Positions 1 to 4,848 of a stretch of 64,000 nt of DNA are shown here, piece after piece; position 1 is the first letter of the stretch; each line of letters begins with the position of its first letter. The stretch is from Candidatus Sericytochromatia bacterium (lineage in GTDB: Bacteria; Cyanobacteriota; Sericytochromatia; S15B-MN24; VGJW01). Below the pieces are notes generated by a model that saw only the letters and a program-made list of their open reading frames with translations, did no database searches and was not told where the DNA came from. The stretch lies in contig JAYKHS010000010.1 in assembly GCA_035285865.1 (NCBI GenBank), positions 1 through 64,000 on the forward strand, given 5' to 3'. The position numbers and the translations under genes are program-made.

Positions 1-91
1 GATGGCTGCCATCGAGTACGGTTTCAGTGTGGGACTGGACATGGGGCCGATCCTGGAATCCGATTCTGGGGGGACGCCGGGGGGACGGTAG
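1..91 (+). CDS. C-terminal end of a gene entering the window, possibly the integrase of an upstream element (partial)
   Basis: Frame ...MAAIEYGFSVGLDMGPILESDSGGTPGGR* ends just before a tRNA 3' fragment and overlaps GGGGGGACG direct repeats; identity inferred from position only. Confidence 0.25.
   Translation, partial: MAAIEYGFSVGLDMGPILESDSGGTPGGR
68..87 (+). repeat. Direct repeat pair GGGGGGACG (68-76, 79-87), candidate integrase arm-type sites
   Basis: Two identical 9-mers 11 bp apart, ~120 bp from the att core. Confidence 0.5.
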
Positions 92-206
92 CAGTGAATT
101 TCAGTGACTCTGAGGGACCACCCGTGAAATCCACGATAGGCTGAAATGCCCGTCAAATCAAGCAGCGTGGGTGAATCGAGATGACTCGAAAATGCACCAC
201 CGTGAA

Positions 207-249
207 ACTTTTAATCAGAGGGTCCTGGGTTCGAGCCCCAGCTGTCTCA
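207..249 (+). mobile_element. att site: duplicated 3' half of tRNA-Lys(UUU)
   Basis: ACTTTTAATCAGAGGGTCCTGGGTTCGAGCCCCAGCTGTCTCA gives anticodon loop CTTTTAA, T-arm CTGGG-TTCGAGC-CCCAG and the acceptor 3' strand; no D-arm or 5' acceptor strand upstream. Confidence 0.85.
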
Positions 250-258
250 TGTAGGTGG

Positions 259-295
259 GAAGCGGGTTTGGGCGATTTCGCTGGGACCCGCTTTC
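259..295 (+). terminator. Imperfect hairpin after the tRNA fragment
   Basis: AAGCGGGT...ACCCGCTT followed by a T-rich stretch. Confidence 0.4.
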
Positions 296-300
296 TGCTT

Positions 301-320
301 CGGGGCAACACCGGGGCAAC
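301..320 (+). repeat. Direct repeat pair CGGGGCAAC (301-309, 312-320), candidate arm-type sites of a second element
   Basis: Two identical 9-mers 11 bp apart on the other side of the att core. Confidence 0.5.
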
Positions 321-449
321 TTTTGCGGGGAATTCCAGGGATAGCCGGGGCGATGGTTGCCCGAAACCGGTCCCCCGAAACGGCATGCCGAAGAACCATG
401 GCGGCTTGGCAAAGCATCGAGTCGGTCAAGGCAACGCCGCACCCTCGGC

Positions 450-620
450 AGTCTGAGAAGTTGCCTCCCTGAGGCCGAGTGGCGACTTCTGACGTAGGGG
501 CAAGGGCCTACTTGGGAGAGAGCGGTCATCCGCAGGACGGTTCTTGCATTCACCCGGCCTAAGGGTGTGGTCGACCCCGGCCACTATCCGAACGCGCATT
601 TCAAGGCCTTGTTGCGAACC
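450..620 (+). pseudogene. Possible decayed tyrosine-recombinase fragment
   Basis: Peptides EVASLRPSGDF and LAFTRPKGVVDPGHYPNAHFKALLR loosely resemble integrase segments; no intact frame. Confidence 0.25.
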
Positions 621-628
621 TGTTTCTG

Positions 629-661
629 CGCCCCGGTCCGGCTTCGCTACGGACCGGGGCG
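629..661. other. Perfect 12-bp GC-rich hairpin downstream of the FGE gene (terminator or DGR-type cis hairpin)
   Basis: CGCCCCGGTCCG (629-640) / CGGACCGGGGCG (650-661); loop contains GCGAAGC on the minus strand. Confidence 0.7.
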
Positions 662-703
662 GTCTGGCCAAGGGACAAAGGGTTCAAGCGCCAAGGGACA
701 GCC

Positions 704-721
704 CTCGGCCTACGGCCTCGA
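704..721. repeat. 18-bp direct repeat copy 1 (CTCGGCCTACGGCCTCGA) spanning the FGE gene stop
   Basis: Identical to 1660-1677. Confidence 0.9.
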
Positions 722-1606
722 CCTGGCAAGGCGGAAGCCGACGCGGCCGATGCGGATGCCCGGGGAGTCGTAGTAGCGGGACGCCGCCCGCGTGCTCGAC
801 GCGTCGACGCGCCACGACCCACCCCGGATAACCCGGTACCAGGTATACTCGGGATCCGCAGGATCCGTCACCGCACCGCCCGGGTAGTCGGCAGCCCTGT
901 CCGTCCACTGCCAGACGTTGCCTGCCATGTCATACAAGCCGAAGGCATTGGGCTGCTTTTGCGCCACCGGTTGCGTCTTGCTGCCGCTGTTGCCATCGAA
1001 CCAGGCAATGTCCCCCACCTTGCTCTCGTCGTCGCCGTTGTACCAGCGCGTCGTCGTGCCCGCCCGATAGGCATACTCCCACTCGGCTTCTGTCGGCAGA
1101 CGATAACCCGTCGTCGCGTAGATGTCGGTTCCAGTCTTGAGCGTGCCGTCGGAGTTGTAGACCTCGGGCAGGCCTTCTTTCCGGGACAAGGCATTGGCGA
1201 AACCAATCGCATCGTACCAATTGACCCTTTCGACCGGACAATCGGCGCAGCCTTGGAAGTCGGAAGGGTTGAAGCACATCAACGCCTGCCACTGCCCCTG
1301 CGTCACATGCGTCTTCTGCATGAAGAAACCGCGCGTCAACGTCACCGATTGCGTCGCCCGGGGCCGGTCACTGGCATCACCCATCACGAAGGTGCCGGGG
1401 TCGATAGCCACGAAGTCCGTAGCGGTAATTGGGGCCGAACCCAAGGGCCCGGGCTTGCCGGTAGTCGAGGTCGGGGTCGGACACGGCACTACCGCAGGAT
1501 TCGCAGATATATCCCTTGGCCATGGCCAGGTTGGCCATGACCAAGCGCAAGCTGCGAGGACGGACGGCAACAACAGGGCCGGCAGGAGACGAATCGGGGG
1601 CTTCAC
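710..1606 (-). CDS. FGE-sulfatase (SUMF1/CLec-fold) domain lipoprotein; probable DGR target
   Basis: Lipobox LAAC; motifs PGTFVMG, PVERVNWYDA, RLPTEAEWEYA, NAFGLYDMAGNVWQW, RGGSW, GFRLAR; RBS AAGGAG before GTG. Confidence 0.92.
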   Translation of the reverse strand: MKPPIRLLPALLLPSVLAACAWSWPTWPWPRDISANPAVVPCPTPTSTTGKPGPLGSAPITATDFVAIDPGTFVMGDASDRPRATQSVTLTRGFFMQKTHVTQGQWQALMCFNPSDFQGCADCPVERVNWYDAIGFANALSRKEGLPEVYNSDGTLKTGTDIYATTGYRLPTEAEWEYAYRAGTTTRWYNGDDESKVGDIAWFDGNSGSKTQPVAQKQPNAFGLYDMAGNVWQWTDRAADYPGGAVTDPADPEYTWYRVIRGGSWRVDASSTRAASRYYDSPGIRIGRVGFRLARSRP

Positions 1607-1659
1607 TTCGGATGCTCCTTTTCAAAGACGGGTGTTCAAGGGGCCGAGAGGACGTACGT

Positions 1660-1677
1660 CTCGGCCTACGGCCTCGA
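1660..1677. repeat. 18-bp direct repeat copy 2, overlapping hairpin 1642-1666
   Basis: CTCGGCCTACGGCCTCGA; stem GGCCGAGA/TCTCGGCC. Confidence 0.9.
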
Positions 1678-1815
1678 AAAGGTGCCGTGGGGCAACCGTT
1701 GTAGGGTGCTGCCTGAGGCATCAATGCCGGCCGGAGAAGCACTTGGCCGTTTCGCGACGGCAGGCTGGACAGACACCACCGAAACCAGAAACAAGGCCAA
1801 GGGTATTGCCTTCAT
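1666..1815 (-). pseudogene. Internally deleted paralog of the FGE gene (49 aa; absent from the ORF track)
   Basis: MKAIPLALFLVSVVSVQPAVAKRPSASPAGIDASGSTLQRLPHGTFSRP*: signal peptide, FGE-start-like LPHGTF, then the same SRP* end; RBS GGGGGAGG. Confidence 0.7.
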
Positions 1816-1828
1816 CTCGTCCTCCCCC

Positions 1829-2087
1829 TGACCTGCCCCCGTTTATCGTCCAACTCAAAACCGGGCTTCATGGTTATGCCACCTGTCGGTGACGTGTTGA
1901 AACTCCTTGGGCGTGAGGTTCTCGAGGGTGCTGTGTGGGCGTTGTCCGTTGGAGTTGTTTCGCTAAATCTCGATAGGTCCCGAGCGTGACACCTTGCTCA
2001 CAGGCCCAGGCGTCGAGGACCTTGCCCGCGAACTCGGGGCCGTTGTCGGCGGCGATGGCCTCGGGCTTGCCGCGCAGTTCGACGAGG
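1829..2087 (-). mobile_element. IS3-family (IS407-group-like) remnant: terminal IR plus broken OrfB
   Basis: TGACCTGCCCCC end at 1829; minus-strand peptides RGKPEAIAADNGPEFAGKVLDAWA and QRPHSTLENLTPKEF with internal deletion and stop. Confidence 0.85.
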
Positions 2088-2299
2088 TAACCCTGACCCA
2101 GAGAACCGCCCCGGCCAGAAGTTGAATTTTCGGGGGATATCTGGTCAAGCGATGATAAGGAGGATCCCCGGTGAAAGGGAGCAAATTCACGAAGGAGCAG
2201 GTGGCCTTTGCCTTCAAGCAGGGCGAACTGGGTACCGCCGTCTCCGAAATATGCCTCAAGATGGGCATCACGGAAGCGACCTACTACCTCTGGAAATAG
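2088..2299 (+). mobile_element. IS3-family left-end remnant with truncated OrfA (2171-2299)
   Basis: AAGGAGG RBS then VKGSKFTKEQVAFAFKQGELGTAVSEICLKMGITEATYYLWK*, an OrfA HTH. Confidence 0.85.
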
Positions 2300-2441
2300 T
2301 GTCCGGGGCCGTCTTGCCCATCCCGGCTTTCTTGCATGGCCTTCATCTCCTCGTCCGGCGATCCCACCGCCCTTTGCCGCGAGCCAATCGGCCGGAAGGC
2401 CCCTCGTTGGTCCCCCGGCCGATTGCCGCCAATCCCTTGGT

Positions 2442-2681
2442 TCAGTTGAGCTTCAACTGGCTGATGCCCCGGCTCACCTGATCGAGCTTCATCTGGGCAC
2501 GGGTCGACTCCTTGCGGTTGAGCCCCGCACCGTCCCAACGATCTGCCACGATATGCTGATGGGTGCTCCGCAGGGCTGAACCCGCCTTCTGTGCCTCGGA
2601 CTGCGTCAGCTGGCCATTCCGAACGCCCACCTCAATCCGCTCACGCTGCACCTTCTGCCGGGCCACGAGATTGACTGCCAT
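2442..2681 (-). CDS. Small helical hypothetical protein
   Basis: RQxxQxxRIExGVRNGQLTxxE pattern seen in small uncharacterised proteins; RBS GGAG. Confidence 0.6.
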   Translation of the reverse strand: MAVNLVARQKVQRERIEVGVRNGQLTQSEAQKAGSALRSTHQHIVADRWDGAGLNRKESTRAQMKLDQVSRGISQLKLN

Positions 2682-3006
2682 TTCGTTTCCTACTCCGGGT
2701 GGGTGACGGTGCCCCTCGCACCGTCATCCACACCACAAGAAGGTCATCCGGAGGGCTGCTCACCGCACGCTCACCTACCCTTCTGTCGTTTGCCAACTTG
2801 GCCGCAGGGGTGGCTGACGATGACCCACGAACATTCGAAAGGCCTGCTCAGGTCATGATGCCCACGGAAAGCGCGGACGCGACCCCCTGCAGGCGCGGTG
2901 CCTTGGCTACCCCCTGCCGGGACGCTCCTCAGGAGGTTCTGCTCTACAATGAGACGTGCCCCTCCGGGCGTGCCCGCTGCCAGCAGCATTCTGCAGGATT
3001 GCACCC

Positions 3007-4848
3007 ATGGACCAAACCAGTACTCCTGCACACGGTCCCGAACCTTCCCGGGAGGAACTCGAACGGCGTCTGGCCCAGCTCCGCGCCGTGGAAGGCGCCA
3101 CCGACGGCCGGCACGCCCTCGATCTGGCGCGGACCCTCGCGATGTTGGCTTGGGAATACTCCGTGGCGGACCTCCGGACTGCGGAAGCCATGGCTACGGA
3201 GGCGCTCGCTCTTGCGACCCCGCTGGGTGAAACGGCCATCGAGGCGATCCCGCACCTCGTCCTGGCCTTCGTCCAGAGGGCCAAGGGCTCGTTTGACAAT
3301 GCCGTCGAGCACGCCGAGGCTGCACGCGTCCGATTCGCGGCCATCGAGAACCATCGCGGTGTGGCGGGTGCGCTCGGCGTTCTGTCCAGTGTCCATGACA
3401 CCTTGGGTGACATTTCCCGCGCGTTGGAGTTGGCTCATCAAAGTGTCAAGGAGGCTCGGCTCTCCGAGGACCGTCTCGCCCAGGCGTGGGCGTTGCACGC
3501 GCTCGCCACGGCCCAGGCCAGCATGGAAGACTTCGACTCGGCTCTGGCCAATCTGGATATCGCCCAAGCACACTTCGAGGCCATGGGTAGCGTCAATGGT
3601 CTGGCCCGTTGCTACGCTTCGCGTGCCTATGCCCAGACGGATCTCGGGCGTCCGGATGAGGCGCGCCGCAGCTTTCTTGCCGCTCGTCCGCTCTTCGAGG
3701 AGAACGGCAGCATGCGCGGGCTTGCGGCAACGGACCGTAATCTTGCCGAGCTCGCGCTCGCCGATGTGCCGGCCAGCACAGGGGAAGCCCTGGAGCGGGC
3801 GTTGTCCAGCATCCGGATTGCCGGCGACCATGATATTGCGGACATTCGACTGGATGCCTTGATCCTGGCGGCTCGGGCCTACCTGGCCAGTGGCGATCTC
3901 GACCAGGCAATCGCCGCTGCCGAAGAGGCGCTTGCCTTGGCCCGAAGCGGCCGCCCCGGTCCTGCCGAGATGCGTGCTCTGGAGGTTCTGGCTGCTGTCG
4001 CGGCCGAGTCCGGCAACTACGCGCGTGCCCATGCCCTGCTGCTGGAGCGCCTTGCTTGCGATCGGGCCTGGCAGGTGTCGCAGAAGCCCATCCGCATGCG
4101 TGACCTTGAATTGGGTCAGAAGGCTGCGGAAGCCGAGGCCACGGATCGCCTGCTGCATACCGTTCTGCCAGCCCCCGTGGTTCAGGAGCTCAAGTTGCAC
4201 GGGGCCGTTCGACCTCGCCGCGTCGAGGGAGCGACGGTCCTGTTCACGGATCTCGTCGGTTTCACGGACATCGCAAGCCGCATGGCCCCCGAAGCCCTCG
4301 TCGAGGAGCTGGAGAAGCTGTTCGGGGCCCTTGACGAGGTCGTCCGGCAGCACGGCCTCGAGCGCCTGAAGACGATCGGCGATGCCTACATGGCTGTGGC
4401 GGGCGTACCGATACCGGACCCGCTGCATGTCCCCAAGGCTGTCCTGGCAGCGCTGGGTTTCCGCGATGCCGTCGCGCGCATTGCCGGCGAGGCCGCAGGG
4501 ACGGGCAAGGGACCGGCATGGCAACTGAGGATCGGCCTGCACGCCGGTCCGCTGGTGGCTGGAATGATTGGCCGGGACAGGACGGCCTTCGACGTTTGGG
4601 GCGATACGGTCAACGTGGCTTCCCGCATGGAATCGAACGGCCAGCCCGGTCGGGTCAATGTCTCCGAGGAAGTCTATCGGGCGATTGCCCCGTGGTTCGT
4701 CTGCGAGGCCAGGGGCAGCCTGCCCGTGAAGAATCGCGGCACCCTCGAGATGTGGTTCGTGGAGCGGCTGCGGCCGGAGTGGTCTGCGGATGCGGACGGC
4801 CTTGTTCCCAATCCCGAGTTCTGGGGGGCGCTGCGGGCAGGTGGCTAG
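3007..4848 (+). CDS. TPR-containing class III adenylate cyclase
   Basis: Ala-rich TPR repeats; VLFTDLVGFT, KTIGDAYM, LRIGLHAGP, FDVWGDTVNVASRME with ATP-specifying K and D. Confidence 0.92.
   Translation: MDQTSTPAHGPEPSREELERRLAQLRAVEGATDGRHALDLARTLAMLAWEYSVADLRTAEAMATEALALATPLGETAIEAIPHLVLAFVQRAKGSFDNAVEHAEAARVRFAAIENHRGVAGALGVLSSVHDTLGDISRALELAHQSVKEARLSEDRLAQAWALHALATAQASMEDFDSALANLDIAQAHFEAMGSVNGLARCYASRAYAQTDLGRPDEARRSFLAARPLFEENGSMRGLAATDRNLAELALADVPASTGEALERALSSIRIAGDHDIADIRLDALILAARAYLASGDLDQAIAAAEEALALARSGRPGPAEMRALEVLAAVAAESGNYARAHALLLERLACDRAWQVSQKPIRMRDLELGQKAAEAEATDRLLHTVLPAPVVQELKLHGAVRPRRVEGATVLFTDLVGFTDIASRMAPEALVEELEKLFGALDEVVRQHGLERLKTIGDAYMAVAGVPIPDPLHVPKAVLAALGFRDAVARIAGEAAGTGKGPAWQLRIGLHAGPLVAGMIGRDRTAFDVWGDTVNVASRMESNGQPGRVNVSEEVYRAIAPWFVCEARGSLPVKNRGTLEMWFVERLRPEWSADADGLVPNPEFWGALRAGG

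Follow-up and report, generated by a model that had tools for sequence, protein, structure and literature searches.

The target gene and its product

The window, a stretch of 64,000 nucleotides running from the first base of contig C10, carries a minus-strand gene whose last 38 codons very probably form a DGR variable region (VR). This gene ends 709 bases from the start of C10. The features of the locus are, in window coordinates:

207–255, plus strand: 3′ half of a tRNA-Lys(TTT), an exact 49-nt copy without the 5′ half
629–661, minus strand: distal hairpin identified by folding, with a 12-bp G+C-rich stem and a 9-nt loop, TAGCGAAGC on the gene strand, with no T run after it
668–722, minus strand: conserved IMH-like element (stop codon, two copies of TGTCCCTTGG, proximal hairpin), beginning at the end of the homology between the VR and its template repeat (TR)
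690–709, minus strand: proximal hairpin identified by DNA folding, GCCGAGGG-CTGT-CCCTTGGC, with 8 pairs including one G-T and a 4-nt loop
710–1606, minus strand: target gene for a 298-residue FGE-sulfatase/C-type-lectin-fold protein, taken from the ORF list, with a GTG start and the stop codon TAG at 710–712
723–837, minus strand: VR, homologous to the TR at G000:C32:57–171
742–811, minus strand: span containing every adenine-linked difference from the TR and the 14 rewritten codons (first difference at index 27, last at index 96)
1547–1606, minus strand: predicted lipoprotein signal peptide MKPPIRLLPALLLPSVLAAC, read from the translation, with lipobox LAAC and Cys20
1666–1815, minus strand: relic ORF of 49 codons with a signal peptide, ending in ...FSRP-TAG

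Bacterial lipoproteins carry an N-terminal signal peptide that ends in a lipobox with cysteine at position +1. The target protein is accordingly predicted to be a lipoprotein, and its lipobox likewise predicts a location on the cell surface. A twin-arginine motif is not evident in the translated 20-residue leader.

The Pfam FGE-sulfatase domain covers residues 62–295 of the target (E = 1e-45), and its top match among solved structures is the Treponema denticola variable protein 1, TvpA (PDB: 2y3c; E = 7.1e-39, aligned residues 145–294). As judged from these two sequence matches, the target is a C-type-lectin-fold protein with a C-terminal VR. Compared to TvpA, true formylglycine-generating enzymes match it weakly (E from 5e-13 to 1e-9). 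The translation of ORF 710–1606 ends in YRVIRGGSWRVDASSTRAASRYYDSPGIRIGRVGFRLARSRP*, and its last 42 residues contain no cysteine, so that the catalytic cysteine pair of FGE/SUMF1, which we take to lie in the C-terminal RGGS... segment, is missing. The absent C-terminal cysteines, together with the weak matches to true FGEs, rule out the target as a catalytic FGE/SUMF1 enzyme. Its sequence identifies it as a binding scaffold and not an FGE enzyme, and the same is stated for TvpA in the consulted part of Wu et al. 2018 (PMC5758913).

When genome contigs were searched with the target protein, only FGE homologs of at most 47% identity, from many phyla, were recovered, with no closer DGR among them. 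Within the window, nothing DGR-like adjoins the gene, in agreement with the preliminary description, which had noted the lack of a TR or RT nearby.

A template repeat on another contig

The genome to which the window belongs (G000) is represented by 32 contigs totaling 2.82 Mb, with an estimated completeness of 82.67% and a shortest contig of 5,145 bases. Searching this assembly with the minus strand of window positions 629–900 identified five places: the window itself, C14:178900–179022, C7:90024–90145, C13:23052–23178, and C32:57–171. The last of these is the TR, which blastn aligns with the VR at 80% identity over 115 nt. Across these 115 bases, the VR departs from the TR at 19 of 30 adenines and at 4 of the 85 other TR bases (Fisher exact p = 1.2e-10). 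The earlier suggestion of a remote or orphaned DGR target is thus supported: the cognate TR lies on another contig of the same genome and differs from the VR in an adenine-specific manner.

The minus-strand codons quoted in the preliminary description are present exactly as written. Fourteen VR codons differ from the TR at adenines, and all 14 are NNC in the window, as had been claimed; the accompanying claim that all are AAC in the template has to be modified, given that the TR has 11 AAC, two GAC, and one ATC codon at these positions. All 11 AAC codons of the TR are rewritten in the VR. The same description cautioned that high GC3 inflates the number of C-ending codons, but high GC3 falls far short of accounting for the adenine bias.

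Three of the four non-adenine mismatches are located at the 5′ edge of the VR, at index 8, 20, and 21. At index 20–21, the VR has GT where its own TR has TG, and agrees with the TRs of two other genomes of the genus, G002 and G003. The fourth, at index 72, is the sole non-adenine mismatch within the diversified span: the VR has T and the G000 TR has G, whereas the TRs of G002 and both TRs of G003 have A (codon AAC). These disagreements at index 72 and 20–21 indicate that the TR allele which served as template for the latest rewriting of the VR was an older or a different one.

The translation of C32:57–171 spans 37 residues and includes only positions 210–254 of the FGE profile; the repeat thus stands alone and does not terminate an FGE gene. 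The TR is polymorphic at one codon (C32:125–130), which is GAC in G000 and AAC in G002 and G003; in G001:C9 and in a 110-base contig of the public run X1, which has a higher depth (22.1), three bases are missing at this site. The contig breaks of G000:C32 and G001:C9 begin at the same base, 127 bases upstream of the polymorphic codon. Past the TR, about 90 bases (C32:172–262) fold into two hairpins closed by an outer stem, and some of the pairs are kept by two-sided changes across six related TR loci. This fold is followed by a conserved CCCUGACCAUCGUCCC, and a similar GACCATCG occurs shortly before the TR. The Bordetella DGR requires a spacer RNA for priming, and by analogy the C32:172–262 fold may be its counterpart.

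Other variable regions in the genome and genus

The three other VRs of G000 were compared to the same TR. Mismatches affect 18/30 adenines and 5/85 other bases in the VR on C14, 18/30 and 8/85 in that on C13, and 14/30 and 12/85 in that on C7. Given their larger numbers of non-adenine mismatches, the C7 and C13 VRs may be older or may be served by another TR. As read from the sequences, all four VR targets of G000 are exported FGE-domain proteins. The genome contains 10 FGE-domain matches in total, of which the remaining five (four genes for paralogs, plus an N-terminal fragment located where a contig ends) show no DNA match to the VR and its flank.

Between species of the genus, conservation at the orthologous loci G000:C13 and G001:C67 is lower in the VR, with 32 of 49 bases identical, than in the 3′ part, with 164 of 171. 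Two RT-TR loci are present in G003, at G003:C22 and G003:C37, and their TRs differ at non-adenine positions (for example, CCCGGAT versus CCCCGGC). The VRs of this genome fall into two sets, each following one of the two TRs.

A conserved element past the stop codon

The homology between TR and VR runs to GCCTTGCCAG and then ends; the four G000 VRs continue with GTCGAGGCCGTAGGCCGAGGGC..TTGAACCCTT.., and the TR with unrelated sequence. The next 55 nt are common to all four G000 VRs and to all 11 aligned VR loci of the genus, and are absent from the TR. For this alignment, 12 candidate loci from four genomes of the genus were considered, and one (G003:C30) was dropped as it lacks the anchor motif. 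The mean pairwise identities among the 11 loci are:

VR, 106 columns: 0.62
Shared 3′ end of the TR/VR homology, 17 columns: 0.93
First stretch past the end of the homology, 55 columns: 0.85
Subsequent stretch, 60 columns: 0.54

With an identity of 0.85 past the end of the homology against 0.62 in the VR, the non-coding DNA after the stop codon is therefore better kept than the coding VR.

The proximal hairpin starts 13 bases past the end of the homology and recurs in most loci. The two copies of TGTCCCTTGG lie past the stop codon at 691–700 and 668–677; the first forms the 3′ arm of the proximal hairpin and the other is a second copy. Both copies, as well as the 12-bp G+C-rich inverted repeat with its 9-nt loop at 629–661, had been correctly described from the sequence. 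The distal hairpin is found unchanged after three VRs of G003 (C12, C20, and C14), and variants with altered stems follow the VRs of G000:C13, G000:C14, and G002:C1. An IMH-like element and hairpins, identified from sequence and folding, are thus present at the 3′ end of the VR and not in the TR, as the proposed IMH-plus-hairpin arrangement implied. In the consulted part of PMC3240598, which concerns the Bordetella phage, the IMH is accompanied by a GC-rich hairpin with a 7–10 bp stem and a 4-nt loop located 4–34 bp from the VR. By sequence, the post-VR element and the proximal hairpin fit this rule.

tRNA-linked flanks and a probable relic target gene

The tRNA-Lys half-copy of the window is 100% identical to G000:C13:22658–22706, lies 455 bases from the stop codon of the target gene, and is convergent with it. 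The intact tRNA-Lys on C13 (22628–22706) has the same arrangement, about 350 bases from the stop codon of another VR gene. Overall, a convergent tRNA, whole or fragmentary, is found at a distance of 350–450 bases from four target loci. As for G003, a tRNA-Asn adjoins one of its VR genes, and a tRNA-like match lies about 380 bases from another. ARAGORN called no tRNA in window positions 1–3000, and Rfam gave no matches at E ≤ 0.1 in positions 1–2500.

A repeat of about 65–210 nt occurs at window positions 256–460 and at G000:C27:766–974, C9:231–363, and C5:121726–121837; it consists of a hairpin, AAGCGGGT..ACCCGCTT, followed by GGGGCAAC twice. The examined G000 copies come after tRNA genes (for Arg and Asn) or 3′ fragments of tRNAs, and several are at contig ends. 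The sequence might act as a terminator repeat linked to tRNAs, or it might mark where an integrating element ends. One copy follows tRNA-Asn in an ordinary chromosomal setting, beside the end of a sigma-factor gene, and for this reason a small tRNA-linked repeat is at least as likely an explanation of the tRNA-Lys half-copy as the end of a large integrated island.

On the other side of the target gene, positions 1660–1677 are an exact 18-nt copy of a piece of the IMH-like element, TCGAGGCCGTAGGCCGAG, at the end of the 49-codon ORF at 1666–1815. On this sequence evidence, the ORF probably represents the remains of a second target gene directly upstream, the body of which has been deleted. A degenerate CTTGAAC motif follows the 18-nt copy. 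Farther upstream, the minus strand of 1828–2160 contains a degenerate fragment resembling the end of a DDE (rve-type) transposase, a family assignment made by eye. Pieces of it (1828–1951 and 1983–2082) match a repeat found at G000 contig ends (C27 start, C14 end, C8 start, and C17 end) and also downstream of the second DGR of G003. On the plus strand, 2956–4848 is a 630-codon ORF in which, by eye, a long helical repeat region precedes a C-terminal part similar to an adenylate/guanylate cyclase domain.

One might speculate that the 55-nt post-stop element, with its two TGTCCCTTGG copies and the two hairpins, is a portable address tag that travels with the tRNA-linked flank, in a form unlike the IMH and GRNA hairpin of BPP-1; we regard this as unlikely. 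Were it true, an HRDC-type DGR could recruit new target genes and spread them around the chromosome.

Variation between samples

Four public runs containing the window (X1–X4) were available as contigs, which drop rare variants; hypervariation within a sample was accordingly read from contig breaks and loose ends. A contig of X4 that covers window positions 710–1401 has 27 differences from the window, 25 of which are within 742–850 and two within 851–1401. In its 115-base core, 18 of 23 differences fall on TR adenines (p = 3e-9). Of the five non-adenine differences in the core, two return to the G000 TR base and a third corresponds to the second TR type of G003, the pattern expected of templating from a slightly different TR. 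At the contig level, as seen in this X4 contig, natural variation is thus almost wholly confined to the VR.

Among the pieces listed, contigs of X1, X2, and X3 end at 721, 720, and 741 and resume at 1067, 856, and 856, respectively. In X4, five contigs diverge behind position 741, with an agreement of 0.68. These breaks and the divergence suggest that several alleles of the VR are present, but contigs could also be interrupted by repeats among the VRs.

Probable location of the reverse transcriptase cassette

RT genes were found in three genomes of the same genus (G001, G002, and, in two copies, G003), and all four lie directly upstream of a TR-like repeat. On G003:C22, the gene order is:

Target (718+ aa; FGE, 3.6e-45)
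HRDC (2.9e-18)
Avd
RT (RVT_1, 1.4e-12)
TR
AAA-ATPase-like gene

The G003 Avd matches bAvd (9.2e-17) and the NCBIfam model DivGenRetAVD (95.3 bits; cut-off 80), and the AAA-ATPase-like gene is the same gene that follows the TR on C32. The N-terminal 480 residues of the G003 target have only weak matches elsewhere. The gene order on G001:C10 is the same as that on G003:C22, with accessory ORFs similar to those of G003. The last 127 bases of G001:C10 are identical to C32:1–127. When metagenome contigs were searched with the G001 RT, relatives of at most 75% identity were found and no contig of the organism studied here, in a search from which very near records were possibly left out.

In the G000 assembly, no RT was detected with PF00078 or the G003 RT protein, and no Avd with PF05635 or PF22296. 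The genome-wide BLASTN comparison that had been proposed for locating a copy of the VR beside an RT and Avd thus succeeded in part: the copy, with mostly adenine mismatches, is that on C32, and the RT and Avd were not found in the assembly. Taken at face value, their absence would make the window gene an orphaned target, diversified in the past and frozen in sequence since the loss of the RT cassette. The non-adenine disagreements between the VR and its own TR at index 20–21 and 72, as if the VR had not been written since the TR changed, point in the same direction, as does the deleted relic of a neighboring target gene at 1666–1815.

The assembly, however, has a completeness of 82.67% and includes no contig below 5,145 bases; a piece of about 2 kb bounded by VR and TR repeats would therefore be lost from it. 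On contig C32, the TR is preceded by 56 bases. In run X1, the one of the four that covers the window best, a 2,093-base contig with a depth of 7.93, matching that of the window contigs in the same run (7.5–7.8), ends on C32:1–67 with zero differences and continues upstream. Its size corresponds to the VR-to-TR distance of about 2.1 kb in G003. By its size, depth, and position, this contig is a candidate for the RT cassette. The RT of G000 is likely situated in an assembly gap. Given that the cassette is kept upstream of the TR in all three congeners, that the X1 contig abuts the TR, and that the VR differs between samples mainly at TR adenines, "remote" describes the target better than "orphaned", and we consider a fossil target improbable.

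A remote target has also to be distinguished from an adjacent one that is parted from the RT cassette merely by a contig break. The window gene is the closest G000 homolog of the cis targets of G003 and G001 (73.75% amino acid identity over the FGE domain; 77–79% nucleotide identity), and its position 709 bases from the start of C10 would be compatible with such a break. Against this, window positions 1–667 resemble neither the HRDC gene nor the VR-to-RT spacer of G001 and G003, and the X1 contigs run unbroken from 721 to 226, into the tRNA fragment. The distal hairpin, moreover, is of the type found at the non-adjacent VRs of G003 (C12, C14, and C20), unlike the type at the cis VRs. On these three grounds the target is read as non-adjacent, and a cis arrangement is very improbable. 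One candidate for the missing cis target was the FGE N-terminus truncated by a contig end at C15:78230–78391, which matched neither the G001 nor the G003 cis target at the nucleotide level.

Finally, ordinary divergence of FGE paralogs without any DGR, in a genome of 65–69% G+C with 10 FGE-domain matches and C-ending codons due to GC3 bias, has practically no chance of being correct: it is already refuted by the concentration of the mismatches to the C32 repeat on adenines (p = 1.2e-10) and by the same-locus contig of another sample, which differs almost solely inside the VR, and it is further contradicted by the location of that repeat outside any FGE gene and by the better conservation of the post-stop non-coding DNA (0.85) than of the VR (0.62).

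Proposed mode of diversification

We conclude with high confidence that positions 723–837 on the minus strand constitute a DGR variable region at the C-terminus of an FGE/C-type-lectin predicted lipoprotein, likely rewritten in trans, through mutagenic retrohoming, from the TR at G000:C32:57–171. This VR is most likely a trans, non-adjacent target of a complete but partly unassembled multi-target HRDC-type DGR. The HRDC-Avd-RT cassette, which is missing from the G000 assembly, would be located just upstream of the TR in this genome, as it is in all three same-genus genomes. The RT would copy the TR RNA to cDNA, with random bases placed opposite adenines, and this cDNA would then replace the VR, with the IMH-like element and the hairpins past the stop codon serving as the address. 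An exported binding protein would in this way vary at 14 codons of its ligand-binding face.

Comparison with known systems

In the consulted part of PMC5758913, DGRs with an HRDC gene are grouped as Architecture C, for which the Treponema DGR is the type example; about half of them also have avd, remote targets occur among non-phage lineages, and seven remote relatives are given for the FGE-type target TvpA. The present system fits that part of the Architecture C description in every tested respect. It shares with the Treponema denticola DGR and TvpA, as presented there, an FGE-type C-type-lectin target with a C-terminal VR, an HRDC accessory gene (here in the cassette of the congeners), and several non-adjacent targets (four found here versus the seven reported). 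The congeners, unlike Treponema in that account, have both HRDC and Avd, in the order target-HRDC-Avd-RT-TR. Further differences from Treponema are the host, an uncultured high-GC bacterium from water metagenomes; the short target (298 residues); and the unassembled state of the cassette in G000 itself.

Lipoproteins with a C-terminal lectin-fold VR reportedly include LdtA of Legionella pneumophila, the target of a chromosomal DGR. LdtA is said to adjoin its DGR on a genomic island and to be exported by the Tat pathway, whereas the target described here is non-adjacent and has no evident twin-arginine motif in its leader.

The DGR of Bordetella phage BPP-1, as covered in the consulted part of Guo et al. 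2011 (PMC3240598), likewise has adenine-specific TR-to-VR changes, a G+C-rich element at the end of the homology, and a short GC-rich hairpin with a 4-nt loop within 4–34 bp past the VR, which here lies at 690–709. Several features set the two apart on that description: the loop is CTGT and not GRNA, and the stem includes one G-T pair; about 60 bases further on there is a second hairpin, with a 12-bp stem and a loop of 9 nt, and the post-VR element contains two direct copies of TGTCCCTTGG; and the target is chromosomal and non-adjacent, with a fold of the FGE subtype and not of the Mtd type. Chromosomal DGRs of cyanobacteria, according to the consulted part of Vallota-Eastman et al. 2020 (PMC7517822), serve several distant targets, mostly regulatory proteins. 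The use of several distant targets is shared with the present system, in which all four are exported FGE-domain proteins.

Implications

In the present case, the codon pattern was enough to recognize a DGR target, to which a template on a separate contig could then be assigned. This is useful for the annotation of fragmented metagenome genomes, in which the RT cassette between repeats is lost. What is known of how DGRs work is unchanged by these findings. They add one multi-target DGR of the HRDC-plus-Avd kind, acting on exported lectin-fold proteins of an uncultured aquatic bacterium, and the 11 target sites with a well-kept post-VR element could help to define the target-recognition rules of this class of DGRs.
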